Virus record (IMG/VR): IMGVR_UViG_3300031800_000001
Coordinates: 32,001 to 96,000 of that record
DNA from: a virus
Direction: 5' to 3' (one strand)
DNA length: 64,000 bases
Shown: piece after piece, positions 29,847 to 60,843 of the stretch
How positions within the stretch are numbered: position 1 is the first letter of the stretch
Layout of the letters: every line of letters starts with the position of its first letter
Notes under the pieces: generated by a model
Database searches by the model: none
Told to the model about the DNA's origin: nothing
Seen by the model: the letters and a program-made list of their open reading frames with translations, nothing else
Translations under genes and position numbers: made by a program

Positions 29847-30979
29847 ACGGAGATAAAAGACACAAAATGGCAATCCGTAAAAGGATTAGGAAAGATAATT
29901 TCCTAGATTCCGAAGGGATAGTTAATACCCCCAGAAAGTCAGAAGGAAAATTTTGCAAGAATCCTTTTGACCAATTTGAAATTCACCCTAACGGTATGGT
30001 GTCTGTTTGCTGCATGAGTTGGCTTCCCGAGAAAATAGGAAACGTCAAAGAAGAAAGCGTTAAGGAGGTTTTCAACTCGGAAAAAGCACAGGAAATAAGA
30101 GAAAGCATATTGGATGGTTCTTTCAAATACTGCGATCACAAACTATGCCCATACATACAGAACGGATCTTTGCCGGACAAGGAAGAGGTTACTGATCCTC
30201 GTCATAAATCAATTATAAAAAACAACAAAACAAAAGACCTTGAGCCGACGTTTTATAATCTTTGCTATGATGAGTCCTGTAATTTAAGCTGCCCAAGCTG
30301 TAGAAAAAATAAGATTCTTTATTACGAGGGCAAAGTTTATGAAGAAAAGAAAAAAATACAAGATAATATAATAAAACATATCTTCGGAAAGCCTCACGAC
30401 AATTACTGCCTTATTAACGTAACTGGCTCGGGAGACCCATTCGGATCGAAGCTTTTTAGGGAACTGTTGTTTAGTATAGATGGAGAAAAATTTCCTAGGG
30501 TATTTTTTAATCTACAGACAAACGGGGTAATGTTCACCCCCAAGTATTGGGAAAAGATGAAAAGAATACAAAAAAACATCAACACAGTTATGGTTTCATA
30601 TGACGCCGGAACACCAGAAACATATAAGATTACCCGCAGGGGAGGGGATTGGGATCAGCTTCAAAAAAATATGAAATTTCTGAGCTCTCTAAGACAAAAA
30701 GGTCTTATCAATGAGCTAAGAATAGACTGCGTTGTCCAAAAAGCTAACTACAAAGAATTAGATAAGCTAGTGAAGATAGGTTTAGACTTGAAAGTGGATA
30801 AAGTATTTTTTTCGCTACTCGTAGATTGGGGCACATGGACACCCGAAATATACAAACAAAATTGTATATGGAAAAAAACACATCCAGAATTTGAAGAATT
30901 TACAAAGGCTTTGCTGAATCCAATTTTCAATGACCCGATTGTGGACTTAGGAAATTTAACGGAATACAAAAAATGTTAG
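29843..30979 (+). CDS. radical SAM protein with N-terminal SPASM/twitch domain
   Basis: CNLSCPSC, TGSGDPF, LQTNG, SYDAG and TRRGG; N-terminal C..PF...G.VSVCC...IGN...YC...C. Confidence 0.88.
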   Translation: MNGDKRHKMAIRKRIRKDNFLDSEGIVNTPRKSEGKFCKNPFDQFEIHPNGMVSVCCMSWLPEKIGNVKEESVKEVFNSEKAQEIRESILDGSFKYCDHKLCPYIQNGSLPDKEEVTDPRHKSIIKNNKTKDLEPTFYNLCYDESCNLSCPSCRKNKILYYEGKVYEEKKKIQDNIIKHIFGKPHDNYCLINVTGSGDPFGSKLFRELLFSIDGEKFPRVFFNLQTNGVMFTPKYWEKMKRIQKNINTVMVSYDAGTPETYKITRRGGDWDQLQKNMKFLSSLRQKGLINELRIDCVVQKANYKELDKLVKIGLDLKVDKVFFSLLVDWGTWTPEIYKQNCIWKKTHPEFEEFTKALLNPIFNDPIVDLGNLTEYKKC

Positions 30980-32302: not shown

Positions 32303-33623
32303 AATTTATTGCACCAGAGCTTTTGATCATGTTCAATTATTGGACAATGGAGAAATGACACCGTGTTGTCCTCCGTGGGTTGATCATTATTCTATAGGCA
32401 ATATAAATGAACAATCATATGAGGAAATTTGGAACGGCGAAAAAGCTCAAAAATTTAGGGAGTCCATATTAGACGGCTCTTTTCGATATTGTAACGCTAA
32501 ATCTTGTCCACATTTACAATCCCAAACACATTGCGTCGGGACAGTAAAACAATTAAAACAACGCAAATTAATAAATGATTCAATACTTTACGACATACTG
32601 CATGAAGATGTCGTTTTAAATCATGGGCCTCATGAAATACAATTTTGTTACGACAGATCATGCAATCTATCTTGTCCATCATGCAGGAGAGGAATAATAA
32701 TGGTTTCTGGCAAAAAGAAACAAAAATTGTTAGATATGCAAAACAAGCTACAAGCAGACTTTCTAAAAGACGCGGATCGACTTATCGTTACTGGATCTGG
32801 AGACGCATTTGCTAGTCCTATTTTTCGAAAATTCCTGCAAACATTCACAAAAGAACAAGCGCCGAAGCTGCGGCATATAAATATATTGACAAACGGCTTA
32901 CTCATTAAGAAGCACTGGGCAACGCTTAGCGAGTATGCCAAGGAAAAAATTCAATACATTAGCGTATCTATAGACGCAGCAACGCCGGAAACATATACTA
33001 TAAACAGGAGGGGTGGAGACTGGAATTTGCTACATGAAAATTTAAAATTTGTTGAAGACTTGAAGGCTGCTAATGAAATTAAAGCATTTCAGACTAGTAT
33101 CGTGGTACAAGATAATAATTTTCGTGAACTGTTTGATTTTATTTTAATGTGTGAAAAATATGCCGTGGACTCTGTTCAGTTGCAAATTATTGAGCCAGAT
33201 TTTATACGGGATTTGGGATACGGTGATTATCTTGAGGAATGGATTCAAAAAGCTGTCCACGAAAAGGTTCATCCTAATCATAACGAATTATTAAACATTC
33301 TCAAAGATGACTTCTTTAATATTTATATAAACAGATATAACGGTGAAGCTCCAGCCGGAACAGCCGTTTCAATGGGTCAATTGTTTAATTTAAGAAACGG
33401 TAGCGATATATCGCAATATGATCAACTACTAGAAGAAGAAGAAAAACTAAAGTTAGCTAAAAAAAGCTCGCTAAAGGACATATGGTACAATAACAAAGTT
33501 TATTTTGTCGCTCCCGAAACCCTGAAAAAAATAAACGGAACCGACACAGCCAAGCTACCAACGGGAGAAACGATCATCTGGGACGAAGATAAAGAGAAGT
33601 GGGCAAAATACCATGCCTATTAA
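32292..33623 (+). CDS. radical SAM protein with N-terminal SPASM/twitch domain
   Basis: CNLSCPSC, TGSGDAF, ILTNG, SIDAA and NRRGG; N-terminal CTRAF...PCC...IGN...YC...C. Paralogue of 29843..30979. Confidence 0.88.
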   Translation: MTDKIYCTRAFDHVQLLDNGEMTPCCPPWVDHYSIGNINEQSYEEIWNGEKAQKFRESILDGSFRYCNAKSCPHLQSQTHCVGTVKQLKQRKLINDSILYDILHEDVVLNHGPHEIQFCYDRSCNLSCPSCRRGIIMVSGKKKQKLLDMQNKLQADFLKDADRLIVTGSGDAFASPIFRKFLQTFTKEQAPKLRHINILTNGLLIKKHWATLSEYAKEKIQYISVSIDAATPETYTINRRGGDWNLLHENLKFVEDLKAANEIKAFQTSIVVQDNNFRELFDFILMCEKYAVDSVQLQIIEPDFIRDLGYGDYLEEWIQKAVHEKVHPNHNELLNILKDDFFNIYINRYNGEAPAGTAVSMGQLFNLRNGSDISQYDQLLEEEEKLKLAKKSSLKDIWYNNKVYFVAPETLKKINGTDTAKLPTGETIIWDEDKEKWAKYHAY

Positions 33624-34284
33624 CAGAAAAAGCGAGTTGCTCTTCATTCACATCCCCAAAACAGGCGGAACAAAAATAGAAGAAATACTAGATATGAAAT
33701 TCGCGGGGGATGACCCTAAGGTTTCAAGCGAAAAACTATATGGGTTTGTAAGAATATACGACGAACTCCATGAACTACAGCACTTAACATACAAACAAAC
33801 ATTAGATTTTGGGCTGGTCGACAAAAGCCTGTTCGATAAATGCTATAAATTCGCATTCGTCAGAAATCCGCTTGACAGGGTTGTGTCTGAATATTTTTGG
33901 TTAGGATACAAATACTTTTCTAAGTTCGAGGACTTCGTTGAGTTTTTACATAAGAGAAAAGGAGAACCGGATGTTCGCGGTACTGTAGAAAATTACATGT
34001 CTCTCGACTGGCTTTTAAATTCCCCCTTCTATGCGCCCCAACATAAATTCATTTGCGACAGAAGAGGTAAATTAATGGTTGATTTTTTAGGCAGATTTGA
34101 AAACTTCCCTAAAGATTTAGCTACCCTATTGGACAATCTAGGAGTGGAATACGACGAAGAATTTTTATTTAAAAAAGTAAATGCTACGAAACACGAAAAA
34201 TATACCACTTACTACAACAAAAAAACAAGAGACATGGTTAAATCCATATATAAGAGAGATTTCGAAATATTTGGTTACGAATAA
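33613..34284 (+). CDS. sulfotransferase family 2
   Basis: HIPKTGGTK, FVRNPLDRVVSE, GRFEN and YKRDFEIFGY. Confidence 0.9.
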   Translation: MPINRKSELLFIHIPKTGGTKIEEILDMKFAGDDPKVSSEKLYGFVRIYDELHELQHLTYKQTLDFGLVDKSLFDKCYKFAFVRNPLDRVVSEYFWLGYKYFSKFEDFVEFLHKRKGEPDVRGTVENYMSLDWLLNSPFYAPQHKFICDRRGKLMVDFLGRFENFPKDLATLLDNLGVEYDEEFLFKKVNATKHEKYTTYYNKKTRDMVKSIYKRDFEIFGYE

Positions 34285-35088: not shown

Positions 35089-35529
35089 ATGGCGAGCTTA
35101 GTATCAGCAGACGAAATCAACTCGTTCACGGGTGATTTTCAGAATTTATTTGACACTTTTAAGAGGTCGATCACGGTGCACAAGGCACCTAAAAAGATCA
35201 TTAACCAAATAAATACTGATTTTTTACATGGTTACGGCGATTCATCTGATCAGGTTAATTATACATATTCTCCGGTGTCTAAAGCTTTTGATTGCATGGT
35301 GCTATACAAAGACAGACAGGAGGCAGACGAAATGGAAAATATTAACTTAACCTATTTCGCCGGAGACATAAGAATAAAGGTCGACGAAGAAACGAAAGAC
35401 TACATACGAAACGGAAAAACAGAAAAGATTTCAGTAGACGGAAAAGACTTTCAGCTAATGACTGAAGAATCTGTGAAGTATTTTTTCGGAATAAAGCTTT
35501 ATGTTTTTCATCTACAATTTACCAAGTAA
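35089..35529 (+). CDS. putative head closure/stopper protein
   Basis: Size, beta-rich pattern and synteny. Confidence 0.5.
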   Translation: MASLVSADEINSFTGDFQNLFDTFKRSITVHKAPKKIINQINTDFLHGYGDSSDQVNYTYSPVSKAFDCMVLYKDRQEADEMENINLTYFAGDIRIKVDEETKDYIRNGKTEKISVDGKDFQLMTEESVKYFFGIKLYVFHLQFTK

Positions 35530-36116
35530 TGAGAATAAACCCAATAAAAATCAAAAGAAAGATAGTAAGGAACATAAAAAAAGTTCCTGAAAGGGTTAAA
35601 ATAGAGGCTCAAAGAAAGTTTAACCGAGCAAAACGAGAAATGATAACTGAATTTGAAAGCCACCCGATTACTCAAGAGCTAGAAGGCGGACCTATGGGAG
35701 GAAACGTCTCTGGCACGCTTGGAGGAGTAGGAAATCTATTTAGTTTCATAGGTTTTCAAGAAGGATCAAATCCAATAGCTACGCTAAGAGAGATGCTAAA
35801 TAATTACCGGATCAATATTATGTCACCAAAGATAATTAAAAGAAGTTCCGGGGTAGACTTTCAATTTAGGGTAACTGGCCCAAGTATGGCAGAAATTGAA
35901 GCAGCAACATATCTAAGTTGGCTTGGGAAAAGTTGGGTAAGAGGCGTAGAAAGAGGTATGACTGGGTTGGGAAACTATTTAGCGCTGATGGGAGCAATCG
36001 GAAGTAGATCAGGAGGGGGTATACAGGCAAAAACATCATATAGGGGAGGAGCCTATAGGCCCACTAAATACATGAGTTCGTTATTGAGAACGTTCTTTTT
36101 AAATTTTAGAAGATAA
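35529..36116 (+). CDS. putative neck/tail completion protein
   Basis: Basic protein in the position of HK97-gp10-like genes. Confidence 0.5.
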   Translation: MRINPIKIKRKIVRNIKKVPERVKIEAQRKFNRAKREMITEFESHPITQELEGGPMGGNVSGTLGGVGNLFSFIGFQEGSNPIATLREMLNNYRINIMSPKIIKRSSGVDFQFRVTGPSMAEIEAATYLSWLGKSWVRGVERGMTGLGNYLALMGAIGSRSGGGIQAKTSYRGGAYRPTKYMSSLLRTFFLNFRR

Positions 36117-37031
36117 ATGAAAGCACAATTTGACAATAAAGTGATGTCCAGCTTCTTGCTGTGGTTCGACCACACGCTGCTTAGAGAAGGCGAAGCGTTT
36201 ACGGACATCTCTAGTTGGTTTTACCCCGTGGAGAGCCTACATAATAACCTGTATACATACGGTGCCCCATTCAAGCAGTTCGTAAGTGATTTTTCTATAA
36301 CAGGAACCGGCGCGGCATTCGCCAACAGAACAGTACAGATTCCTACCGGAATCTATCTAGATGGTTCGCTCATAGGAACGGGGACAAGCAATTTTAGTGG
36401 CATGAGTTACGAGCAGGGGCAAGTTTATTTTGGCACAGAAATAACAACCCCCGAAACAAGGCTGAGTGGTGATTATGCCGTAAAGGATTTCAATGTATAT
36501 CTAACTAACGAGCCAGAAGAAAAATTGCTTTTTGAGACGAAGTTCCACCTAAGGCCTAAAACCGCCGAAACACAAACAGGCTTAGCTTCTAACGCGATAA
36601 CCTATCCAGCTATTTTTTTAAGATATAACGGTTCCCACAGTGAACCATTGGCGTTTGGCGGGTATGACATGACGACCATAAATCTAAGGGCGGTAGTCTT
36701 GGCGGATAATCAATTTAATTTAGACGCTGTTTGTTCCATAATGAGGGACAAGGTAAGAACATTTTTTACGTTATTTGGTACAGGGGATATGCCTTACAAC
36801 ACTCTTGGTGACTATAAAAGCGGTGTGCCTTGGAGCTATACCGGAAAGAAAGCAAGTTATGAAGAAAACAGTTACATTTTCATAGAAAACGTAGGAATTT
36901 CTAAATTTTCTAGAGATGTGAACGTTAAGGTAAATAATTTGAACCCGGATGTCTTTAATGGTGTAATTGACTTTGAGGTTACGAAACCTAGGTATCCTCG
37001 AAAGGCTAATAGAAATCAGGATTTACAATAA
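36117..37031 (+). CDS. putative tail terminator/structural protein
   Basis: Immediately upstream of the tail tube gene; YPAIFL motif. Confidence 0.5.
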   Translation: MKAQFDNKVMSSFLLWFDHTLLREGEAFTDISSWFYPVESLHNNLYTYGAPFKQFVSDFSITGTGAAFANRTVQIPTGIYLDGSLIGTGTSNFSGMSYEQGQVYFGTEITTPETRLSGDYAVKDFNVYLTNEPEEKLLFETKFHLRPKTAETQTGLASNAITYPAIFLRYNGSHSEPLAFGGYDMTTINLRAVVLADNQFNLDAVCSIMRDKVRTFFTLFGTGDMPYNTLGDYKSGVPWSYTGKKASYEENSYIFIENVGISKFSRDVNVKVNNLNPDVFNGVIDFEVTKPRYPRKANRNQDLQ

Positions 37032-37090
37032 CAAAAAAAGTTTTCCCTAAAAACTAAAAAATATGTAATAAAAAGAAAGGATTATAAATC

Positions 37091-38398
37091 ATGGCAAGAA
37101 ACAGAGTTATTTATCAAAGTGAGGCTCTCTATGTGAGTCAAACACCGGCTGTTAGTGGCTTCTTTACTGACAAAACTGCCGTTGGTGCAGAAGGATATAT
37201 CAGCGCTCCGCTGCATCCATCTGGAAACCAAGTAAGGCAGTTGCACAGAATTCAGACCGCTAACTATTCGTTTAACATACCGCGCACAGACATTAACCAG
37301 TTTGGCGAGTTGGCTGCTATCGACAGAGTTGTAATGGACACTCCCACGGTAGCATTGGACTTCAGTTACATACTAGCAACCATGGAAAACGAAATGAATC
37401 TTGGATTCGTTACGGATGGACATGCTAGCTGCATTTCTGGGATTCTTAATAAGACACAAGACGAGAAAAACTACTTCATCAAGACTGTTGGTGAGGGTGT
37501 TGACGCCGTCGGAGATCTTGGACCCGAAAAAGACAGCATCGCAATCGAAGGAGATTACGAGTTTGTAATTGGAATTGGCAATGGATTCATTACCTCGTAC
37601 ACGACAGAGTGTTCGGTGGGTAATTTCCCAACTGTTACAATAAATGTTGAGGGTCTTAACATGACTTTCGAGAGCGGCGTGAGTGGCGCAAGCCCCGCGG
37701 TGAAGCCCGAAAGTGGAACAAGACTTGAGCATTTCAAGTATATTCTTCCGACTACCACAGGCAGCGCCGAGACAGGAATTATGGCAACAAGCGCCCTGCG
37801 CCCCGGAGACATCACCTTCGCCTTCGCGAAAGCCGATAGAGAATCAGTGCAATTATCTGGTACGCTCTTCGATTCGGTTACCGACGACGAGGATACGTAT
37901 GATGCTCCCGGAGCACACCTCGGAAACATGGATTCCAAAGCACACGCTAAGATTCAAAGCTACAACATCAGTCTAGATATGGCAAGAGAGCCGATCAACA
38001 GACTCGGAAGCCGGTTTGCGTTCTCTCGTGAGATCACATTCCCGATGTCCGTGACCTGTACGATTGACGCTCTGGTGGCCGATCTGACCACTGGTAGTTT
38101 GTCGGATATCATCAATTGTGATGATTCTTACGACATCGTAGTTAACCTTCTGCGTCCCACAAGCTGCCCCGGCACGCTTACTGATGGAACCGCAAAGGAT
38201 ATCTTCGCCCAGTATTGGTTGAAGAACTGCAAAGTGAATAGCCAAGCGTTTAGCTCGGATATCGGCAGCAACAAGAGTGTGACTCTCGAGTTCGCAACTC
38301 AGGTTGGTGGACCGAACCAGAAGAACCAAGGCTTGTTTATGAGCGGTATCTCGACTGGATATCTCTCGATGCAAAGAGATGCGAGTGCTGATTCCTAA
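37091..38398 (+). CDS. major tail tube protein
   Basis: Followed by a strong terminator, two chaperone genes and the TMP; beta-rich; ATGTAA motif variant at 37063-37068. Confidence 0.72.
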   Translation: MARNRVIYQSEALYVSQTPAVSGFFTDKTAVGAEGYISAPLHPSGNQVRQLHRIQTANYSFNIPRTDINQFGELAAIDRVVMDTPTVALDFSYILATMENEMNLGFVTDGHASCISGILNKTQDEKNYFIKTVGEGVDAVGDLGPEKDSIAIEGDYEFVIGIGNGFITSYTTECSVGNFPTVTINVEGLNMTFESGVSGASPAVKPESGTRLEHFKYILPTTTGSAETGIMATSALRPGDITFAFAKADRESVQLSGTLFDSVTDDEDTYDAPGAHLGNMDSKAHAKIQSYNISLDMAREPINRLGSRFAFSREITFPMSVTCTIDALVADLTTGSLSDIINCDDSYDIVVNLLRPTSCPGTLTDGTAKDIFAQYWLKNCKVNSQAFSSDIGSNKSVTLEFATQVGGPNQKNQGLFMSGISTGYLSMQRDASADS

Positions 38399-38426
38399 GC
38401 CGAATTAAGCAACTAAACCTTAACCA

Positions 38427-38455
38427 GCCCCCGGTGAAAACCGGGGGTTTTTTTT
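38427..38455 (+). terminator. intrinsic terminator after tail tube gene
   Basis: gcccccggt-gaaa-accgggggt followed by a T-run. Confidence 0.88.
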
Positions 38456-38511
38456 ATTTTACAGGTTGTGGTTAAAATGTGTAAATCTTTGCAGGAAAAA
38501 GGCTGAAAGGA

Positions 38512-38757
38512 ATGCATGGAGACATGAACAAAGGGGGTGAAAAATCCAAGGACTTCTTAGTATTTCAACTACGTCGCAAGATAGTCAATCTTTATAAAAA
38601 TTATCTTTTTATTTTAGAAGATTTAGAAAAGTCTGGCTATGATATTCCAGAAGAAGAGTTCCAAAGAATAAGGAAAAGAATTCTTGATTACGGGAATGAT
38701 ACCATAAGGGAAATTGAGGAAAATTTAGATAAATTTGACATTGAGCTAAAGTTATGA
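38512..38757 (+). CDS. hypothetical protein
   Basis: GTGTAA at 38479-38484; ATGA overlap with the next gene. Confidence 0.65.
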   Translation: MHGDMNKGGEKSKDFLVFQLRRKIVNLYKNYLFILEDLEKSGYDIPEEEFQRIRKRILDYGNDTIREIEENLDKFDIELKL

Positions 38758-39737
38758 AAAAACTATATGAATTTGCAGTAACTAAAGTAGAGTCCGTTGT
38801 GAAGAGGGATACTACTACTAACGAAAAAGGCGAGAAAGTAACCACGGAAAAAACCGTGGATGAGAAGGTTAAACATCAATTTTTTCTCAGAAAACCCACC
38901 AGATCCCTTTATGACGAGGCCGAGTTATTTTACGGCATAGAACTTTCCAAGGGCATTAAGGCCGGACTCCTTACGAAGGCCCTTCTAGCTAAAAGGTACG
39001 AAAACGACGGTGGCTCTTTAAGCGACGGTGAAATAGAAAGATACGGCAACTTATATCTAGATTTCTACAGAAAAACAGACGAATATCAAAAACTATTAAT
39101 AAAAGACGAAGAGAATTTAACTCAAGAAAACCGGGACGATATGGAGCGACTGGAAAAGGAATTGACAGATAATCGAAGTACCCTGACTCAATTTGAGATG
39201 GAACAGCAGAGTCTGTACGAACAGACAGCGGAAGTCAGAGCCAGAAATAAAACCATCTTATGGTGGATTTTAGCACTGTCATATGGGGGCGACGATAATG
39301 CGTATTTTCCCGGCAAAACATTTGACGATAAACTTGCGGTATATGACGAACTAAGTGAAGAGGAAGACGATTTTATAAATACTGTGATTCAAAGGCTTAC
39401 ATACTTTGTGAGTTTTTGGTTTGTGGGTAGGGCATCTACACAAGAAGAGTTCGACGCTATGCTTAGGGAACAAGGCCTACAAGAAATTGAAGAAGAAGAA
39501 GAACAAGAAGACCTTGATGCACAAGAAGAGCTCCCAGTAGAAGATGACACAAAAGCAACTCAAGATATAGTCCTTGAGAACGTGGTAAGTGAAGAGAAAC
39601 CCGCGGAAGAGAAACCCGCCGAGGTTAAGCCTAAAAAGAACAAGAAAACAAAAAAGAAAGCTCCCGTAAAGAAAGAGCTTAAGAATGATGATGATAATAA
39701 TCCTGAAGAACCGACGGAGCAGCAAGAGACAGAGTAA
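38754..39737 (+). CDS. tail assembly chaperone (G-like)
   Basis: Acidic helical protein between tail tube and TMP. Confidence 0.55.
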   Translation: MKKLYEFAVTKVESVVKRDTTTNEKGEKVTTEKTVDEKVKHQFFLRKPTRSLYDEAELFYGIELSKGIKAGLLTKALLAKRYENDGGSLSDGEIERYGNLYLDFYRKTDEYQKLLIKDEENLTQENRDDMERLEKELTDNRSTLTQFEMEQQSLYEQTAEVRARNKTILWWILALSYGGDDNAYFPGKTFDDKLAVYDELSEEEDDFINTVIQRLTYFVSFWFVGRASTQEEFDAMLREQGLQEIEEEEEQEDLDAQEELPVEDDTKATQDIVLENVVSEEKPAEEKPAEVKPKKNKKTKKKAPVKKELKNDDDNNPEEPTEQQETE

Positions 39738-39755
39738 CAATGGAAAACTAACCTG

Positions 39756-39785
39756 AACTCCCCCGCCTCAGGTGGGGGTTTTTTT
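39756..39785 (+). terminator. terminator-like hairpin between the two chaperone genes
   Basis: cccccgcc-tca-ggtggggg followed by T7. Confidence 0.65.
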
Positions 39786-39791
39786 ATACAT

Positions 39792-40814
39792 ATGACCAAA
39801 GAGAAAGAAAAAATGAACAGTGCCTCACTGAGGCTTCTTTATGCTGATATAATAAAGGGCTACTCCAAGACCGAGGACAAGAGATACAAAGCCACATACA
39901 TAAAACACCTCGGCACTATTGACGCCGCCGGCATGGACGAAATAAAAAGTAGGTACTACGAAGAAGCTAAAAAAGAAGGGCTACCAACAGAAGATGACAA
40001 GCTCGAGTATCTCCATAAAGAGGGGGACTGGACGAAACAAGACGAGGCTAAGTTGGATGGATTAAGAAGCTGGGTCAAACAACTAAAAGTAAATAAATCC
40101 AAACTCTTCTTGGAGAGAGACAAGAATCAATTAATTAACCAAATAAGAGAAACAGAAGGCGAAATACAAGTAAAAGAAAACAGAAGGTTAGAGTGGATCG
40201 GGATGACTTGCGACTCTTATAGCTCAAAAAAATCAAACGAACACTATATATTTCAATCATTATTTAAAAATTCCGAATGTCTTGATCATTTGCTCTCTGC
40301 AGAAGAATTCGACGAGTTGAGCACTCAGGAAATTTTTTATTTAGTTAAGCTTTACAATGGAAAAATGGAGCCATTTTTTCCGAGAAACCTAAAAAAAATA
40401 GCTTTATCAGGTTTTTTTCTTAATTTCTTTTATTTGTGTGACGACAACCCAATGACATTCTTTGGTGAACCAGCGGTAAGCTTAACCTTTTATCAGGCTG
40501 AACTTTTCGGCCATGCGAAATATTTTAAATCTATACTCCAAGATTCGAAAAATAAACCCCCACATGATGTAATGGATGATCCAGACGCCATTATAGACTG
40601 GTATGAGTCCAGCAAAGCGTCTCAGGCTGCGTTTGATAAGGTCAAGGATACCGGTAATGTGGGCGGAAGCTCAATAGTGGGTGCATCCAAGCAAGAAATG
40701 ACAAAACTTGGGGCTATAGACGACGGTGAAAAATTTATTGATTTGGCCCAAGAAGCTATGAAGAAAGGCGGATCGCTTAATATGGAGGAGCTTATAAAGT
40801 TACATGGGCAGTGA
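39792..40814 (+). CDS. tail assembly chaperone (T-like)
   Basis: Immediately upstream of the TMP; PAVSLTFYQ...DDPDAIIDW segment. Confidence 0.55.
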   Translation: MTKEKEKMNSASLRLLYADIIKGYSKTEDKRYKATYIKHLGTIDAAGMDEIKSRYYEEAKKEGLPTEDDKLEYLHKEGDWTKQDEAKLDGLRSWVKQLKVNKSKLFLERDKNQLINQIRETEGEIQVKENRRLEWIGMTCDSYSSKKSNEHYIFQSLFKNSECLDHLLSAEEFDELSTQEIFYLVKLYNGKMEPFFPRNLKKIALSGFFLNFFYLCDDNPMTFFGEPAVSLTFYQAELFGHAKYFKSILQDSKNKPPHDVMDDPDAIIDWYESSKASQAAFDKVKDTGNVGGSSIVGASKQEMTKLGAIDDGEKFIDLAQEAMKKGGSLNMEELIKLHGQ

Positions 40815-40846: not shown

Positions 40847-43800
40847 ATGGCGGATAGTTTTATCACACTAGGAACAAGGTTAGATAGCGCATCGCTGCAA
40901 AGCACTTTAAGGCAAATAAACAGCGCTATTACCCGAGTAGAAAGGAAAGGGGTTAACATTAAAGTTGACTCTGGGAAATTTACTAGACCCCTTGGGAAGA
41001 TCACTGGTGCCACAAATGAATTCACAAGATCACTCGAAGCATCAAATGCGCGTGTTTTAGCGTTTGGAGCTTCTGCCGGGGCAATTTTTCAAGTTCAAAG
41101 GGCGTTTGAATTTTTACTTAAAAGCACTATTGAGGTCGAGAAAAGACTTCAGGATGTCAATGTAATTTTGGCGCAAACAGACCGAGGCCTCGCCAAGTTC
41201 GGAAACAACCTTTTCTCGATAGCTCAAAAAACGGCACAGAGTTTCGATACTGTCGCTGAAGCAGCGACAGAATTAGCTAGGCAAGGCTTGACAGTCGAAG
41301 AGACCCTTCAGAGGACAAACGACGCCCTCATTCTTACGAGGCTTTCCGGTATGGATGCGGCAGCATCAGTTTCTTCCTTGACAGCAGCATTAAATACGTT
41401 CAACAGGGAGGCGTTAACTTCTACTCAGGTAATTAATAAGCTTGCCAATGTGGATGCGGCGTTTGCTGTAAGCACAGACGATTTAGCCCAAGCCATGAGG
41501 CGCGTGGGAAGTACCGCTCAGGACGTTGGCGTATCCTTCGACCAACTTCTTGCAATTACAGCCTCTGTTCAGCAAACAACTGCTCGCGGTGGCCCCGTAA
41601 TTGGTAACGCATTAAAAAGTATATTCACAAGAATCCAAAGAAAAGACACTCTTAATCTTTTAGAAGAGTTGGGGATAAAGGTGAGGGACTTAGAGGGGCA
41701 AATGCTACCCGCAATGAATGTTCTTGGCAATTTGGCCAAAAAGTTTCCCGAGCTATCTAAGGCTCAACAAGCTCATACTGCTGAGGTGACTGCTGGCGTA
41801 TTCCAAATGAATAACTTAAGAGCGATACTCGCTGACCTTGGGAAAGAATATTCGATTTACGATAAAGCCGTGCAGATATCGACAGGGTCTACAAATGAAG
41901 CAATATTAAGAAATGAGATGCTCAACAAAACCCTCGATGCCCAAGTAAAAAAGACGATGGCTTTAGCCACGCAGGCAGCCAAGAAAATAGGAGACCTAAC
42001 CTTAAGGCCGGTCTCAGAGAGAGTGGTTGGGATCATGCAGAAAGTTTTGGGCGATATTAATGATAAAGACACAAATGACATAGGCGGAAAGATAGCGCAA
42101 GGGATGCTGTCCGGAATTGGAAATTTTTTATCGGGCCCGGGGCTACTTTTGTTAACTGGATTCCTTGGAAAACTTGGAATGAACCTAGCTAAATTCGTTA
42201 AGGAATCTGGAGCTCAATTTATGGGGCTGAACACGGCTGCGGTTCAACAAAAAAGCATACAAGAAGGAATAGCCAGAATATTGCAATCTCAGCCACAACT
42301 TATAGCAAGGGCAGCGACATCCACACAGGCAAGAGTGGTGGTAGAAAGAGAAATAATCGGTATACTCGAACAAGAGACTCTTGCGATGCTAAACTTGGAG
42401 AAGGTTGCCCAAAGAATGGCTGGCATGATGGTAAGAGGCGGGGTAACCGTAAGTGGTTCAGGACAAGTGGCGGCACCGGCGTATTTGAGGGGGAGAGGAC
42501 CCAAGGCTGCGGCGAGGGGGACCGGCATTTCGGCACAAGGGCACATACCGAATTTTGCTAAAAAAAGCGAAGTAAGCGAAATAATAAGCGCAGCCGAGGG
42601 CGGATACAAAGCGGGGCAAATAAAACAAATGAAAATGCCCGGGCTTGGAACAATGACCTACAACTCAAGAGAACAGGTTAAACATGTTCCCGGCTTTGCT
42701 CAGCCATTCATTAATCCACCACTGCACTCAAAGGCCGGCAGGCAACATAGGGAAAAATCAGTGGCTGAAACCGGTGTCGATCCTTATGCAGTTCCAAATT
42801 TTGCCAACCCAGCGATGCTTTCCTTATATGCTCGAGGCAGATTGGGGGTGGGTACCATAGGTATGCCCGGCAAAGGAGCCGCTGCTTCTTTAGAAAGTTT
42901 TGGAATAGGGAGATTTTATAAATCCGGGCCCAAGGTTCCCAAAGGTCAAAAAAATGTATTAAGGACTGCTTATGATCATGCAATAGCGGGTCATGGTGTA
43001 TCAGCCGTAAAGGGGAAAATAGCGTTAGGAGAAATAGGAGAAGTAGCAGTCGCGAGAGCTACAATGCCAAGCGATGTTGCAAAACGATTTTATAATGATC
43101 TATTGTCTCCGGCGATGGGCAAGACAGCGTACAAGGGTTTTACTGATGCACTTGGAGGGAAAACCAAGGCGGCGGGCATAGCGCAAGATATAGTATACCA
43201 TCAAAACGGAACAGCGCGGTCATTCCAAGGGGCAAGAGAAAGGGCAATGGAAGTGCTTGCAAATAATCCCGCCGCTAAAGGTTCATTTTTCGCAAAAGCA
43301 GAATTGACTCATTCTACTTTGTTAGAAAAAGCCCTTTTTGAACGCGGTGCCGGTCAGCATCTTCTGCCATTCAGCAAGGTGAAGATGGGGCAAGGAGAGA
43401 CAATTCTAGACGCAATAACTGTAAAAGGAGGAAAAGTAATTGGACCTGCTGAATTCAAACCAACTTTTCATGCGGGAATGTCCGGCAGAGATGCCAGAGG
43501 AAGCCTGTCGTACAAGTCGTTATTCTCTTCTGACTCAGGTAAAGAGGGCGGACTATTGCATTTTTTACGGTCAGGAATGGAAAAGAATATTGCCCGCGGT
43601 GGCTACAAAGACAAATCCGGTCAATTCCATGGCCCAGAGAAGTTAAGAGGCGATCTAAACAAATTAGATGATTATATAAGTACCGCAAAAACGTCAGACT
43701 TCGCTAGAATGCAAAGAGTTTCCCAAGGTGAAATTACGCTTGAGGGAGCTAAATCCGCAACAGCAATAAAAGATATTTTTGGCAAGGATGTAATGAAACT

Positions 43801-46800
43801 CCTTGAATCGACCCCGTCGGCATCAAATTATGATAAATTAATGGCGCATTTTGGTGCGGCCCAAGGCTTCATTCCTAATCTCATGATGCGGGGATCAATG
43901 AAAAAGAAATTAGCCACTGCGAGCACGAGTGGAAAAGGAAATATTTTCGATTTTGATGGGACGCTAGGTATACCCCCGAAAGGGATGGTTACCACCCCAA
44001 CAGGCATGAGAAAAATGCAAGAATCAGATACGTGGCATGGTTGGTCTGTCGGTCATATGAAACCAACTGAATTAGCAATGGCAGCGGCTAAAAATAAAGA
44101 GCCAATAACAGTTTTAACCGCAAGAGGGCAAGATTCAGTTCCGTATATCCAGAGTTGGTTAAAGGCCCAAAAAATTCCATACAGTGAAGTAATAGCTACT
44201 GGAAGCAGACAATACCCCAAAGGGATAGAGAAAACCCACCAGAAGAAGGCCTATGAAATTTTTGAACGCCCACATTTACGAAACGCAAAGTTCTATGAAG
44301 ACTCACGGGCAAACGCATATTACGCGGCACTAAGAGGTGCAAGCAAAGATATGAATATACAGCCCCGAATAGTAGATTTTGGCAGCCGTTGGGGGCAGGT
44401 TAATCCAGCTGGCCAAGGGCTCATTCCGAATTTCAGTAAAGATTCATCACTAACGGCTGCGTTTAAAAGGGAAAAGAAAGCCACCGGGTTACCCGAAAAT
44501 CAACTTTATGCAGCTTCCATAGATACTCCAGAATACAAAGGTTTGGCGGTAGGAAATAAGAGAGATGAGCGGACAAGGACGGATCTAATTAAAGCTGTCA
44601 AGTCTCACCCGAACCCAGCAAGAGCAGGCATGAAGGCAAGCGGGGGTTATATACCCAACTTTGCCGCAGATAGCGTGGATTACATGGCCATGACATCAGG
44701 AATGATGATGGCGGGAATGATGATGCAAATGGGCGGATCCAGCGCTCAAGAAAAACAAATGCTGGCCGACCAAAAGAGTGACTTTAGAAAACAAGAAAAT
44801 ATTAAGAAAAAAGCAAGAGCAGCCGCTAAAAATCAAGAGAGAGCACAAAAAAGCCAAGAACGAGAAAGAACTAGATTACAAACAGAAGTCAAGACTGCTG
44901 AGCGCGAGGGACAGCAGGCGACCAAGGCGCAATTGCAGGCCAAACATGGAACGGCAACCACTCCGGGGGGGCCGAGAACGGGAGGCGTAAAACAAGCTCA
45001 AGCGGCGCAGCAAAGAGCAGCAGATAGAATAGTCCGAAGAGAAGTAAACAGGGCAATAATGCACGGTGGCACGCCAGCGACTTTGGCGGGGGGTGCCCCA
45101 ATTCCCACTGGCGGTACACCCGCAAGAATTGCGGGACTGGGAATGGCTGGGGTACACGCTGAAGCTGGCGGGGGGCGGGGCATAAACCCAGCCACTGGTC
45201 TACCACATACGGCAGCATACAACGCGAAAATCGAAAAGCTAAGAGGGGTTGGTTTCGGGAAAGCGCAACAAATAATTGCACAATCCACACAGACTACAGG
45301 AACAACCCCAAGGGGAGCCGTCGCTGTACATGGTGGCGACAAAGCAGCCAAGGACCTAACCAAAAAAACCTTACTCCTTCAAAAGGCGAGAGAGGCTGAA
45401 GCCCGCGCCGCTGATCGAGTAAAGGCAGCAAGCGACAAAAAGACCGCCGCGGCAGCAAAAATTATTGCGCAAGATAAAGAAATAGCAAAGTCCTCAAGGA
45501 AAGTAACCGCCGCAAAGGCCGCAGAAGCAAAAGCGACAGAAAGGGCCGCGGCAATGAAGCCGGACAGAAAAGCTGCCATCAGTAAGTGGGTCAAAGGAAA
45601 AGGTTTTGGACTGGGAATAGGCATTCAAATGATGGCTGGAGTGGCCGAACAATTTGTGGGAGGCAAAGGTGAAACCCCAGAAGAAAGAGCAGAAAAAGCA
45701 AAAGTTAGAGGGGTTGGCACCGCGGCAGGAATGGCCGGAACTGGCGCAATGATTGGCGGTGTGCCCGGCGCGCTCATTGGCTTAGCTATTGGTTCAGGGC
45801 TAGCCGTCATGGATCATCAAAAAGCCAGCAAGAAAACAGCGGAAGACTACGCGAAAGCTATTCAAAAAGAGACAGAAGCAAGAAAGAAAGCCTTACTTGG
45901 CGCGGAGTCATATATTAAATTGCAGGGGAGATTAACCGGCATGTTTAATAGGGGCGCTGGTCCTGCCGAACAGGGGTTGATGCGCAGACAAATGAAAGAA
46001 CAACTCATGCAGGTTGAGGACGCGGGGCTAAGAAGAGGGCTAATTGAGGCGGCTGGTGATGAAAGTAAAATGCGAGAAGCTATGGCTAAAGTGCAGGAAA
46101 CTATTAGCATACAGGAAAAGAAAGGTGGGATAGGCGTATTAGCGGCAAAGGCAGCAGAGGCCGGTGGGGGAACGCGGACACCGCTAATGAAGGACTTGGC
46201 GAAAACCCTGTCTTCTGCATTCGAATTAAAAGGAATTAAGACTTGGGAGCTCATGGGTAAATCTGGCGCTGAGCTAACGACTACACTCGAAGGGATGGGC
46301 GTTGGTGCTAAAGAAGCCGCAGACATGATAGCAGCACTTGGAGAAGAAAATCAAGGTCTTATACCGCAGATAATGGCTCAAGCCCAAGGATATGAAGAGC
46401 TCGAAGCAGAAACTTCAAGATCTGTAGAATCAATAGAAAGAATGGCGCTAGCTACGGCTGATCTAAACTATAGGTTATCACAAATATCAAATTCATTTGA
46501 ACATTTAATGAATGTATCAAAGCAGTTCTTTGACCACAGTCAGAAAGTGACCAAAGCGTTATCAGGCTCCATCACGGGAGATGACACGATTGGTAAGGAG
46601 CGCAGAGAAAGGTTTGGGCTTACCGGTAATATACTCAAAAACATCGAAACTAACACCTTAAAAAATACCCTGTTGCAAAAAAGATTTCACGACGCAATCC
46701 TTAAGATGACCATGGAAAAAAGTAGCGCGGGAGGAAGCTTGCCGGGGGGATTGCAGCAACTTCAAGTCTTGGCGCGGGAAATGATAGTCGGCCCAGCTAG

Positions 46801-49800: not shown

Positions 49801-52800
49801 ACGAGGGACGCAACAAACTTCTCGTCCACTCACCACAATGGCTAGACAAACATTTGGTAAATACGGAAGAGCATTCTTAGGAGGAAATAAAGACTATAAG
49901 GGGCCAAGAAGCGGATTGCCAAGCGCAAACAGCCTTTTAGGCATCAAAACTAGTTTTAAGAATATTCCTGATCCTAGCAAGATAGATGACATGATGAGGG
50001 ACATACAGAAAGCGTCTCCAGATATAAAGGACCCCGCAAAAAGGGCAAGTCTGAGCTATCTATCGATGCTGAAAACAGGGCAAAAAACAATATTTAATGT
50101 AGCACAACAAGTTGCGGAACGGTTAAGGGGCGACAACACGCTAATGATTGAAGAAATTCATAAATTGGCACCGGTTTTGGGCGATCTACCTTTCCGCGAA
50201 TTAGAAGAAGGTTTAAAAGCCGCGAACAAAGATATGTCCGCCGTAGTTAGGGATCAAACCGACGCCACGAGTAAAGCAGCTGGTATGGCAAAAACGCTAA
50301 GTAAGCACACTATGGAGATGGCCAACATTTTCATAAATCAGAATCTGCTTGCGAACTTCAGGGGGCCTCAACAGATCGACAAGGCAAGAAAAGTTGGGAA
50401 GCAATGGATGGATACGCTAAAGGAGGGGATTCCGGACATTGGTGGTAAGATGGATCCTTCGCGCCTCGGCCCCGAGGGTTTGAAACCCGGTACTTACAAA
50501 GGGGGTTTGTTTGGCGGTAAACTGAACCAAGATGGCTTGTGGCGACGGGCAGCAGCGAGAAAAGAAGGGGACCCATTCATCCCGGACCGCACCCGTGACT
50601 ATGAACACTCAATGATGGGCCCCGGTAGTATATGGCAACTCTCACCAACAAGGGGCGATGACACGTTTGCTAATAAGCGAGACATGGCGTACAGATTTTT
50701 GGAGAAGCTAAAGCAGGGCAAGGCTCATCAACGGATGATGGCAGCACCCGGCGGAACTACCGGGGGGCCACCGGCACTTGGATTTCAGCCGGGGCGGGAA
50801 CACACGATATTGGGTGGCGAGACAGCTGGCGTGATAGCGCAAAAATTCGGCGTCTCTCTGGAGAATTTAAAAGAGGCAAATTCCCAAATTGCAGACATTA
50901 ATAGAATTAATGCTGGGGACAAAATGAATATCCCGGCCCAATATAGTATTGAACACACGCTGGGGCAGAAACTCACCGCCAATCAACAAAAGAAAATTGC
51001 TGAACAACTCGACAAACAATTTAAAGAAGGCGTAGTCTACCATAACGAAATGCACAAGGCAACTGTAGCCCGGAAAAAAATAGCAGAGAACGCTAAGGAG
51101 ATTGCAGGAATAGAAGAAAAAATAAAAAACAGAACGATTGAGGCTAGCAAAGCACAAGACAAATTAAAGGCTTTATACGCTCAGAGAGTGATGATTGAAT
51201 CGAAGCTAAACGAAAAGGAAAAATCGCTGGCAATCCAGAGTTCGAAAATTGGGGACGATAATATAAGAGCGCGGCATCAAGCGGTGGTATTAAGAGCAGC
51301 TTTAGAACAGAGAGCTATAAAAGAAAGAACAGACCAAACGGCCATGCTCCAAAAAACCGTAGATGTGCATGGTGGCAGAGCGCTGCTCCCCGAGGAGATA
51401 AAAGACCCAAGAGCAAAGGCTGCCGCGGACCAAATAGCGATAAATGAGGCAGCAAACGAGCAGGGCCAGCGGTTCGTTGACTCTTTACAAGCAGAAAGAG
51501 ATGCTTTGCTTCAAGCCAATGCCGCGCTTGAAGGGTTCTCTAAAGCAATTGGAATTTCCTCAAAAGATTTGCAAAACATGTCTCCTTTCGAGCTTAACCT
51601 TGAGCTTATAAGACAAGAGGGTTTGCCAAGACAAAATTTATTGGATGCGATGCGCAGCCCAAGAATGCCACAGCCGGGTGGCAAATTTGCCGCGCAGACA
51701 TTTAGCGCAATTTCACCATCAAGAGTGGGGGAAGCGCAGCAAAAAAATCTCAAGGAAGAGATGGAGAAAATTTTACGCATCGAAAAAGAAGCAGCTGCGG
51801 GACCAAGAAAAATACATCTCGCAGAGAGCAAGGTGGCGGAAGCAAAAATCATCACGGCGGGTTTTATGCGGGAACCGGAATTCAAAGCTTTTGAGAAAAG
51901 CTCGGGGGCTTTGAAAACTGCGGAAAATAAGAGGGTGTCTGAGGAGGAAAAGGTGGTTACCTTGCTCGTCGCCAAAGGTGAACTACTGAAGAAGGAGGGC
52001 GACAATGCAAAAGCTCTCGACGCCTTGGGAGAGGAGATTGAGAATGCAAACACAGCGGTAGTGATAGCAAGGGGAGTTGAAAAAACCGCCATCGATAAGC
52101 ATAACGCAACATATGCCGAGTACATAAATGTTATAAAGGCAGGAGAAGATGCTGAAAATGAATTAAACAAAGCAAAACAATCACACATTGACGCGCTGGG
52201 CGCTCAAGGAGTAATTATTAGAAACTGGGGGTCGGTAGCTGAAGCAGCTATAGAAATACAAAAGAGATTTGTAACTGCAGAACACGTGAAGAGGATGGAG
52301 CAACTCGATACGCAAATAGCTAGCACGACAATGAGTTTAGCCCTAATGGACGACCCAAAAAAATTCAGAGAATTATTAGAATCAACGAAAAAGCTAACAG
52401 AGGCCCAATTAAGGCTAGCGGCAAAACAAGCCAGACTAGAAGAAGCAGCAGGCATAGGAACTGCTCAGGACACATACCAAAGAGAACAGGATGTAACCCG
52501 TCAGCAACTAAGAACGGGAAAAATAGGCGTCTGGGAAGCGTTTGGAGCGGATACATTTGAAAAAGGCGAAGCGATGTCAAGAGGATGGAAAGAAAGGGTC
52601 CTCGACGACATGATCGAAATAAGAGAGGGAATGATTTCGTCTTTCTCAGACGGTTGGGCCGCTTTCGCGCTAGAGGGCAAAAGCGCATCCGAGGTAGCGA
52701 AACAGTGGGGAAGAGATTTTTTACGGATGATAAATCAAGCGTTCTATAACGCTACGATAGGTAGATTTATGGGGAACTTGATGAGTGGCGGCTTTGGAAG

Positions 52801-55800: not shown

Positions 55801-58800
55801 TTTCCAAAGAGAAGAAACCCCAGACTTTGCACCGTGGGGAATACACCCGTCAGCTGTAGATAAAGACGTAGCTAGGGTAATATTTTCAGAAGTCGGAGCA
55901 CAGCACGAGGATCTTGTGCATGTCGTTGGGGACGCAATGAGAAATAGATACGATAATCAAGCATCAAGAACAAGGCACGGCATTTCTACTGAGCACGGAA
56001 TATCGGTTAACGGTGCCAGATATCCAGCAAGGGTTAGAGACAGGGCGTGGCAAGTTCAAGCGCCGAATAGAAACGGGAGGGGACTTACTTGGCGTGCCGC
56101 AACAGCGGCAGAGGGGGTAACGGCAAGCAAGATTGGCATGAAGGATATCGCGTGGCAGGGCGCACCGGGGGGATTCCGTCCCGAAACAACACAACAATTT
56201 ACCGCCATTGGTCATCGAGAGAACGATAATTGGCATTTATCCGGAAGACTGTCGGTATTCCACCAAAGCCCACAGGGGTTTGCCGACATGAATACTTGGC
56301 TCGGCGGGGGTCCAGCGGGACGCGCCGTTACAGCGCAATATAGCAGGCATTACGGAAGCGATGTTCTGGGAAATGCGACTGACGGGTGGATCGGTGCACG
56401 CGAAAGCATTCAAAATGTATGGAAAAAATCCCTAGCACAATCCGCATCAAATAAAAGAATAGGAAATCCAGCAGATGGAGTAACGCTACCCGGCCAGCAG
56501 CAATCAGGCTTATTAGCTAAAGATGATGAATGGTATAAATCTTGGCAGATAGGAATGAGCTCAGAATTTGATCCTCGAATGAAGCCTACGGCCATGACGC
56601 AAAATGTAGGTCCATTTTGGCTGTGGAGAGCTGATTACACAACGGATTGGCAATCCAGAGCTAATGATCAGCAGCGCAGTGATCGCGGCTTGCCCACCCG
56701 TCGAGGAAGAGTGCAAGCTGATCGAAGACAAAGAGGAGGATTGATTACCGCTGGCTCGGGAGTGACAGATGACGTACCGGTGTACCTGAAAAAGGGCGAA
56801 ATGGTGATGACCCAGAAAGCAGTACAAGATAATGGCGTCCAGTATTTCAAGGACATAGAGGCGGGAAGAGTACGCATGGAGGAAGGTGGCGAAGTTGATG
56901 AGGAAATGATTAATGAAGCCAACAAGGCGACTGAAAAAAATCAAGAGAACGAGGGGGAGGAGACTGGAGAGAGGAATCCGCCAAGCCTGAATGAAAAATA
57001 CGGGATGAACCTTGCAGAGGCGTGGGGTGGAGCTCCCGGCGAATTTAAAATGGAAGGCATAGCAACGCAAGATAAAAAGTGGTATAACTCTGGAAATATG
57101 CCGGGTCAAGGTATGCGACGTGTTGCTGAGGTTGTGGAAGAACGATTTGGAAAAGGATTTAAATACGGTGGGACAAACACATTCGCCTACAATGACCCCG
57201 ACAAGCCATCATTAGGAAGATTTTTCGTGGATAATAAGATGAGCATGTACGCCATGGAAGCTAAAGATAACCCACAGAATGAGATGCGTGAGAAACGAAG
57301 GAAGATGTTCGTTGATTATAAGGTTTATCTTAATGACGAATACAAAAATAGAAAACAACAATTTGACGACTTCAAGAAGAAAAAGAAACAGATGCTCAAG
57401 GCGGCGTGGATTCAGTTCGCCGTCGCAATGGTGCAGGTTGGAGTGGCGGCCAAGTCGGAATCAGCAAATGCAGAATATGGTACCGAGGAACAAGTCAAGG
57501 CCAATCCGGGGAAATATAAGTCTATGAAAGGCGCGCCGAAAGGTACGAAGGCGGGATCGTATGTCAATCCGACAGCGCAGGCGTCTTGGGCGAACAAAAT
57601 GAAATGGGCGGATAGTCCGGGGGGGTCGGCGCTGATAGCAGGTACAACAACTGCCGCTATAGGCTATGGCATGGGTATGGAGGGGAAGGACATAGCCCTG
57701 ACTGCTGGAACAGCAATGGCAACGGCTGCTATAACATCCTACGCAAAAATTAAAGGGATGGGCAAACAAGAACAGAACGCCTTAAACAGCAACGATCCCG
57801 CGATTCAGCAGGCTGCATTAGACCGGTGGAAGAAACACCTGAGACCCGAAGAAATAGCAGGCGCAGAACAAAGCATTGAATTTCACGGAACCGAACAGCA
57901 ACTCAAACAGTGGGTTAAGGAAGAGAACAAATGGCAAAAGAGTAGCATGCATTGGGCTAACCTCGCGAATGACGACCAGACGCCAGAAGGACAGAGAGCC
58001 TTGGCGAAAAGGACTGCCCAGTCCCACGCAAATAAATTACGGCATGTCCAAGCGCAGAAGAATGCCTTCATTGGAAACAGCCAAGCTCTTCACCCGGACC
58101 TTCTTGTGCGTGATGCCAAGAACAATGTGTGGGGGATGAACGCTAAAACAAGGGCAAATCTTAAATCAATTAAAATCGGATGGGCAAGAAGTAAAGAAGC
58201 GGCGACGGTAAGAAGAAACCAGTTGGAAGGCATGAACGAAAACGCGGACATGCTTGGGCGGATGATGCAGCCCGGCGGCAACATGGGCGGGTTTCCTATA
58301 CCAAGAAAAGCCCAAGGAGGACTAATAACTGGTGCGGATGGACCTCCCGGCGAGGACACAGTTAGAGCCTTACTTACGAGAGGAGAGTTTGTGGTCAGCA
58401 AGGAGGGAGTTGACAAATTCCCCGGCGGAGCAAACGCACTCCTCAGGTACAACGACATAGCAAAACATGGAGGTCAGGTTGCAAGGTTTGCAGAAGGAGG
58501 GATGGTTACAGGAAGAGAATCTCAATTTAACCCCACCTCTCCCATCACTGCGGCAACTGGTGGTGCTTTGGGTCTGAATGTGGGGCAGGGAGCCGAAGGG
58601 ATGACGGATTCTCTTATGCAATTGGTTGATATAGTTCAATCAATCAGAGACACAGTCGATAAAGAAACAGCAGAAAAACAAAGAGAAAAGACCGCTGGGG
58701 GGCAAAACGACACTCAAAATGGCACTAGTGGTGTAAATCAAGAGATAACAAATAACGTTGCGGTAACGGTCAATGTAAACAATGACGGTACAACAGACGC

Positions 58801-60841: not shown

Positions 60842-60843
60842 GA

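Follow-up and report, generated by a model that had tools for sequence, protein, structure and literature searches.

The 64,000-nucleotide stretch of viral DNA analysed here (the window) covers bases 32001-96000 of IMG/VR virus record IMGVR_UViG_3300031800_000001, which is 116 kb long and estimated to be 71% complete, and encodes on its + strand a giant tape measure protein (TMP) of 6,037 aa (P0001; 40847..58960) in a single unbroken open reading frame (ORF). Behind a conserved core, this protein carries an array of modules fenced by a short repeated peptide, G-x-[IV]-P-N-F, and a motif-delimited module architecture in which the peptide has a junction role is assigned with high confidence. The motif is specific to this TMP family and is selected as a peptide, and it is the place where modules are gained, lost and reordered. 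Judged from its sequence, the module between the third and fourth motif copies is very likely a PnkP-type HAD phosphatase, with 3'-phosphate ends or nucleotides as candidate substrates. The best explanation of the array as a whole, put forward tentatively, is a modular TMP with protease-read junctions and delivered cargo.

A TP901-type TMP core, PF10145 (PhageMin_Tail), was found at aa 126-312 of P0001 (41222..41782, + strand), within the conserved N-terminal ~540 aa, and scores 115.6 bits, above the Pfam gathering cut-off of 33.2. The first 561 aa are matched by 24 PHROG TMP families (best E = 1e-50). The gene also sits in a tail block, the upstream ORFs at 35089-40814 being co-conserved with the TMP gene in 44-68 of 82 related loci. 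Near-full-length homologues of 5,946-6,429 aa and 77-84% identity are encoded on independent contigs, and the giant ORF is thus genuine and not an assembly artefact.

An earlier note, made from the letters of the window alone, had listed five copies of the motif after the TMP core, and all five are in frame in the TMP ORF: SAQGHIPNFA (copy 1, 42530-42559), VPNFA (copy 2, 42791-42805), AAQGFIPNL (copy 3, 43856-43882), AGQGLIPNF (copy 4, 44408-44434) and ASGGYIPNFA (copy 5, 44636-44665), all on the + strand. Copy 2 reads PYA-VPNFA and lacks the Gly, while the form PY-A-x-G-x-VPNF is kept at this position in homologues; the copy 4 position reads GLIPSF in homologue P0002, and copy 5 is followed by a Met-rich hydrophobic segment. 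The pattern [IV]PN[FL] occurs five times in P0001 against 0.11 expected (2000 shuffles, maximum 2), every time within aa 567-1272, and the G-x-[IV]-P-N-F form is confined to the TMP ORF within the whole 116-kb record.

Conservation of the junction motif

Relatives of the window TMP are encoded on at least 500 IMG/VR contigs. The motif is present in 78 of 80 related loci fetched from IMG/VR and in all 13 long homologues from protein databases, each of which has 2-20 irregularly spaced copies. The consensus of 119 copies is [AS]-x-G-(F/L/Y/H)-(I/V)-P-N-(F/Y)-(A/S), with Gly- and polar-rich flanks. Constraint was measured by freeing each motif position in turn, and was strongest at Pro (96 of 96 copies), followed by Gly and Phe/Tyr (96 of 100 each). 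Relatives on contigs from metagenome-assembled genomes (MAGs) have 2-12 copies and come from diderm aquatic lineages, most commonly Flavobacteriia, then Cellvibrionales/Pseudomonadales, Neomarinimicrobiota and others, with hosts assigned solely via MAG binning. MAGs of Clostridia and Lachnospiraceae encode TP901-type TMPs of 1,817-2,398 aa with 0 copies. Literature searches on motif strings and TMP polyproteins found no published description of such an architecture.

The junction motifs of polymorphic toxins are believed to promote recombination, and a DNA-level recombination signal alone, promoting cassette exchange with no role for the peptide, would fit insertions, deletions and shuffling that fall exactly at the motif. 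However, the five copies in the window are encoded by differing codons, and among 354 distinct copies the synonymous codons for Gly, Pro, Asn and Phe are used as in the background, with equal entropy. Selection on the motif therefore acts on the peptide and not on a DNA signal, and a DNA-only signal, excluded by this codon analysis, retains next to no probability.

Module layout and exchange

Homologous proteins were cut at the motif and the pieces clustered, resulting in a catalogue of 338 modules from 80 loci in 87 clusters, of which 43 are singletons. The family layout consists of the ~540-aa core, a module m1, one or more variable modules, a module m4, a hydrophobic segment and a long coiled-coil body. 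The first bookend, m1, is ~75 aa long (42560..42784, +) and belongs to cluster cl0, which is found in 62 loci and nearly always occupies slot 1. The last bookend, m4 (44435..44638, +), is ~68 aa long in the window and 65-70 aa in the family, and its catalogue counterpart is cluster cl1, found in 57 loci and nearly always in the last slot. BLAST left the window's own m4 ungrouped with cl1, whereas MAFFT places it with the array-ending C-type modules, and the window m4 shares their consensus, …RE…GLAV-N-RDEP…; in a clustering of the protein set it groups with the module of P0003 (cluster M). A minimal form with four motifs and one cargo slot of ~250-310 aa is common among TMPs of 2,000-2,300 aa, and the window TMP is an expanded version of it. 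Shared modules vary in order and copy number, as in H-N-O in P0007, O…H in P0010, and module D present one to three times. That the motif delimits modules is supported by consistent slot positions among the clustered pieces and by insertions and deletions that end at motif edges.

The HAD module illustrates this. Homologue P0004, 77% identical to the window TMP, is without the entire module; the gap spans motif 3 to motif 4, so that copies 3 and 4 mark the left and right edges of the difference, and a single hybrid copy, GFIPGFNK, is left behind. Independently of the P0004 event, the TMP of locus L009 differs from the ~90%-identical P0007 by a 152-aa unit made up of one motif and a HAD cassette. 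In a survey of pairs sharing a 70-99.5% identical stretch, insertions or deletions of at least 40 aa were scored as lying at an edge when within 8 aa of a motif; both ends lay at a motif edge in 10 of 15 (0.32 expected), and at least one end did so in every event. Seven of the 15 are one P0004 event, which leaves about eight independent events. The slots had been suggested to be exchangeable, and a comparison of homologous TMPs for differing domains between motifs had been proposed; module order does differ among homologues, the HAD is present or absent from motif to motif, and the inter-motif pieces form the 87 clusters described above.

HAD cassettes lie in different slots of two close relatives of P0007, at aa 2048-2183 of the L010 TMP and at L009:7338-7769, and P0007 itself has none. 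The L010 HAD sits inside a 306-aa module, perhaps through loss of a motif.

Motif spacing in the family is irregular, from ~30 to >1,000 aa, and therefore no periodic structural role is indicated. Tandem copies 7-10 residues apart were seen in P0009 at aa 4600-4615 (GFIPNFAPTKGFIPNFG) and in P0012 at aa 1854-1866 (GYIPNFANFVPNY), and are therefore junctions without an intervening module. A purely structural junction with neither reader nor cleavage, either a stiff insulator that contains Pro or a short strand bringing the three TMP chains back into register, would let any module insert without disturbing tail assembly. It would fit the presence of the motif at every junction regardless of module type, the single hybrid copy that remains after deletion, and the short N-terminal β-strands that set the register of the 80α TMP trimer. 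However, a nine-residue pattern with an invariant Pro and a near-invariant Gly is far tighter than ordinary linkers, and the tandem copies also argue against such a junction, which is considered improbable.

Cargo modules

The cassette between copies 3 and 4 (aa 1013-1190; 43883..44416, +) had been read by the earlier note as a HAD-superfamily phosphatase of the PNK type, and profile comparison with phage PnkP-type HADs agrees with that reading. Three TMP cassettes aligned to five phage PnkP-type HADs with hhalign at 96.9% probability (E = 1.8e-10) over 96 columns that include motifs I and II. The nucleophile motif I, DFDGT, is present at aa 1035-1039 (D1035 and D1037; the string IFDFDGTL starts at 43943) and aligns with DLDGT of the phage PnkP HADs and DFDET of the L009 cassette, while motif II, VLTAR, aligns with ILTGR inside the hhalign match. 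Motif III (QKKA) and motif IV (YED; FYEDS at 44291) lie beyond the 96 matched columns and were placed by multiple alignment with MAFFT only, against RK/IKEE and FDD, respectively. The L009 cassette, 29% identical to the window HAD, has DFDET, ILTAR, QKKA and LIDDAP. The PNK-type assignment is supported at the profile level because of this match together with the aligned, intact catalytic motifs.

In a permissive tblastn of cultured phages with the HAD as query, 17 of 22 weak matches fell under features annotated as polynucleotide kinase or 3'-phosphatase, and most of the other five were duplicate entries for the same phages, with the feature labelled hypothetical. The matched phage genes encode HAD-only proteins of 145-178 aa beside repair exonuclease, ligase or kinase genes. 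The nearest Atlas clusters are viral HAD_SAK_1, Acid_phosphat_B and T5 dNMPase, at 0.93, and the HAD-type PHROG families 1238 and 415 match the segment weakly (2e-4 and 8e-4). Among curated families no Pfam or NCBIfam HAD match was obtained even at E = 10, sequence and profile searches against the PDB gave no match, and a word-based search for standalone relatives of the segment found none. Standalone PnkP-type HADs of T1/TLS-like phages (e.g. Aeromonas phage Aer_P220 UTQ78246.1 and Enterobacter phage F20 YP_009666188.1) resemble the window HAD in size (145-178 aa) and in motifs I and II; they are free early proteins encoded by repair genes, whereas the window HAD, at ~24% identity, is an internal part of a virion structural protein.

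Between copies 2 and 3 lies segment B (aa 653-1005; 42806..43864, +), an orphan cargo for which only its own clade was found. No match was obtained in Pfam, PHROG, NCBIfam, PDB or Atlas, and a search of 1.84 billion representatives returned three matches, namely its own cluster and two spurious ones. Inside segment B, KGKIALGEIGEV of the window corresponds in position to SSGHVPNFSRFG of the divergent homologue P0005, a true motif copy, with which the sequence G-K-I-A-L-G at aa 723-728 (43013..43030, +), next to GEIGE, aligns. The helix motif GEIGE of the window is thus a decayed junction, and segment B is probably two fused modules. The possible PD-(D/E)xK nuclease proposed for this ~350-aa segment is not supported: the pattern is present in the window, but its residues are not conserved in P0005, which has a deletion of the stretch ETILDAI, with the Asp suggested to be catalytic, and N-F-M in place of E-F-K.

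In the remaining cargo of the family, a reduced hhalign comparison of module clusters showed that cl2, cl4 and cl9 (and marginally cl5), common slot-2 cargo families, are remotely related to one another, and that segment B is unrelated to them. Pfam searches with 70 cargo cluster representatives gave five weak matches (best E = 3e-4, near chance) and left 65 without any match. The earlier description of the TMP as carrying enzyme cassettes therefore stands for one HAD phosphatase and is not established beyond it; the plural is overstated, and the fitting description is variable cargo modules, mostly unrecognised by Pfam. Pfam searches with eight whole homologues gave two sub-threshold hints, one to SNase in P0011 (aa 1292-1389; 0.0018) and one to a cytidylyltransferase-like domain in P0014 (aa 1145-1233; 0.0049), and one member each of alignment A6 gave sub-threshold hints to GNAT (0.003) and RhoGAP (0.0003).

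Proposed junction recognition and delivery, and known systems

In the proposed working, an uncultured, very long-tailed aquatic phage would carry in its TMP an array of self-contained modules between the core and the membrane and coiled-coil body, with m1 and m4 bracketing a variable middle that here would consist of segment B and the PnkP-type HAD. A protein partner would read the motif at each junction, most likely a tail-maturation or host protease cutting beside the Pro, as happens in T5 pb2 at S-F-V-P-R↓A. By analogy with 80α and P23-45 gp96, the array may occupy the head-proximal end of the tail lumen and be the last part to exit, immediately in front of the DNA. Its cargo, the HAD phosphatase for example, may then work inside the cell as soon as infection begins, and a phosphatase of the nucleic-acid type would fit a place ahead of entering DNA. 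The strongest version of this proposal, in which the motif is the recognition site of the TMP-cutting machinery, reused many times in a plug-in polyprotein that releases its cargo into the host with the DNA end, is rather unlikely.

Precedents come from several phages. T5 pb2 is cut once, after R1127, between a hydrophobic stretch and a peptidase domain, and both pieces (pb2* and pb2C) remain in the tail (Linares et al., 2023; PMC10038345). T5 and λ are the only phages whose TMPs are known to be cut, with the T5 protease unknown and the λ site unmapped (PMC12617516). In 80α, the three TMP chains run from the neck, where their N-termini abut the tail-completion protein and the end of the DNA, to the baseplate, where their C-termini are located, and the TMP is often fragmented on gels. 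The N-terminal RNA polymerase of P23-45 gp96 is active on the phage's DNA at 5 min after infection (Chaban et al., 2024; PMC10770324). When the T5 cut site is read from the T5 record as NANSFVPR↓AEGG, the motif agrees with it at P5-P2 (small, aromatic, Val, Pro). The likeness to the T5 pb2 site together with the gp96 precedent would make cleavage and delivery plausible; by analogy, delivery of cargo into the cell could go either way, and cleavage at the motif itself is somewhat doubtful.

Several observations weigh against this reading. Towards the T5 site, P1 of the motif is Asn and not Arg, and P1' is Phe/Tyr and not Ala. The Asn position holds Asn in 96 of 108 copies, Ser in nine (8%), Gly in two and Thr in one, and never Asp. 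No peptidase family was detected in the TMP or in 10 neighbouring ORFs of this ~71%-complete record, and profiles of the two ORFs directly upstream of the TMP gene revealed no peptidase and nothing in the PDB. Cargo need not be released, since gp96 is full-length in virions (PMC10770324), and a ruler protein with 4-20 cut sites could be processed only once the tail is complete. The AlphaFold2 models were too poor to show independent folding of the modules: segment B has a predicted local distance difference test (pLDDT) score of 35 from a 5-sequence alignment and the stretch from motif 3 through the HAD, motif 4 and m4 to motif 5 has a pLDDT of 33 from a 3-sequence alignment. Only one cargo module, the HAD, has a recognisable function, and cultured phages gave no match to P0001 beyond the generic core.

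Asn-aromatic and Asn-small pairs are the scissile bonds of nodavirus and tetravirus capsids, and a protease-free, autocatalytic cleavage through the Asn side chain (a succinimide at N↓F), as in the maturation of those capsids, would dispense with the protease that was not found near the TMP gene. However, Ser, Gly or Thr replaces the Asn in 12 of 108 copies, close relatives of the window TMP included, and the chemistry needs a structured catalytic environment, which a linker does not provide; such autocatalysis is very improbable.

The motif might instead be left uncut and serve as a docking peptide for a chaperone, either a periplasmic peptidyl-prolyl isomerase of the SurA/FkpA type or the phage's own tail-assembly chaperones, so that modules are kept soluble or unfolded while the TMP crosses the envelope or the chain is ratcheted forward. 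This is possible but doubtful. The core Ar-[IV]-P-N-Φ agrees with the Y-I-P-N-V portion of WEYIPNV, a ligand of the SurA P1 domain obtained by phage display, with a dissociation constant of 1-14 µM (PMC11401910), the motif looks like a short hydrophobic island in Gly-/polar-rich linkers, and tolerance of Ser, Gly and Thr at the Asn position suits binding better than Asn-specific chemistry. The relatives stem from diderm aquatic lineages, and the TMP of HK97 is reported to require the periplasmic chaperone FkpA (Cumby et al., 2015). Compared with the SurA ligand consensus Ar-X-Ar-X-Pro, the second aromatic, the non-polar residue and the Pro are present, and the Asn also matches WEYIPNV; however, the first aromatic is missing, position -3 being G, S, R, K or Q. 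Moreover, a HAD phosphatase of nucleic acids or nucleotides suits the cytoplasm better than the periplasm, and the hosts on which the diderm argument draws are known solely via MAG binning.

The docking idea also bears on the two ORFs immediately 5' of the TMP gene, of 327 and 340 aa (38754-39737 and 39792-40814), which accompany the family as conserved genes in 64 and 68 of the 82 related loci, respectively. They occupy the usual tail-assembly-chaperone position, yet are two to three times the usual size. Neither has a match in Pfam, PHROG or PDB, and both are candidate partners of the junction motif, which would favour docking. The 327-aa ORF was considered as a parvulin/SurA-like chaperone after an initial match at E = 1.3, and this was refuted by its family profile, which has no SurA or parvulin match and so counts against docking.

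Further along the TMP, the sequence RFAEGGMVTG (58487-58513, aa ~5881-5889) closely resembles the residues after the T5 cut (R↓AEGGMMYPG). This AEGGMV element belongs to a class of xxxGG punctuation motifs that recur in the last third of the protein, and on sequence likeness this second class may correspond more closely to the T5 site. A LysM domain is located within the coiled-coil body at aa 3320-3363 (50804-50935, +; Pfam E = 7.7e-7). Farther 5' of the tail genes, on the same strand, PHROG matches were found to a radical SAM protein (29843-30976; 3.4e-7) and a galactose-3-O-sulfotransferase (33613-34281; 8.7e-25). The region 3' of the TMP gene (58989-63741) contains a single further + strand ORF (298 aa) followed by a strand switch; the three ORFs downstream of the TMP gene are not conserved in related loci, with 0-1 matches each, and the distal tail genes are thus away from their usual place.

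A repeated junction peptide with shuffled cassettes is absent from the five closest known systems as described. T5 pb2 (PMC10038345) is similar in that its cut marks a boundary between a ruler/membrane part and an enzyme domain, at a site that shares small-Φ-V-P, and differs in having a single site near the C-terminus with Arg at P1 and Ala at P1', a cell-wall peptidase as cargo and no cassette variation. P23-45 gp96, a TMP of 5,002 aa, is likewise giant, belongs to a very long tail and has an N-proximal enzyme, but this is one fixed virion RNA polymerase in an uncleaved protein whose description includes no repeated junction motif (Chaban et al., 2024; PMC10770324); compared by description and not by sequence, the window family has instead an array of 4-20 motif-fenced, shuffled modules whose identified enzyme is a HAD phosphatase. 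TMPs with cell-wall hydrolase motifs, such as that of mycobacteriophage TM4, also have embedded enzymatic or binding domains, as the window TMP has its downstream LysM, but such domains act on peptidoglycan and have no repeated motif around them (Piuri and Hatfull, 2006), the nucleic-acid-type HAD being cargo of another sort.

Polyvalent proteins (Iyer et al., 2017; PMC5512222) are large, virion-borne or transferred, built of unrelated modules, thought to act early and sometimes processed. They typically have an embedded zincin-like peptidase and many recognisable enzymes, whereas the window TMP has a repeated junction peptide and, where several unrelated catalytic domains would mark a polyvalent protein, one recognisable enzyme in its array (the HAD), with LysM elsewhere; that paper contains 0 mentions of tape measures. 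The Sle1-type TMP-related effectors of actinobacterial contractile injection systems share a TMP-like scaffold, an exchangeable domain and loading into the tube, but belong to a bacterial injection system and have one C-terminal variable domain, with no repeated junction motif reported in the abstract (Nagakubo et al., 2026; PMC13277306).

TMPs are usually seen as rulers with an occasional cell-wall enzyme; in this family the ruler is a site for cassettes, with a defined junction peptide and two bookends. The cargo of the family changes fast and is almost wholly of unrecognised function, and thus offers dozens of candidate early-acting phage proteins. The junction gives phage-tail engineering a natural place at which to insert proteins, and the motif provides a multi-copy, sequence-defined handle on how TMPs are cleaved. 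If a HAD phosphatase of the end-healing type is indeed carried in the virion, it would be a new pre-made early function, following a logic like that of the P23-45 virion RNA polymerase.

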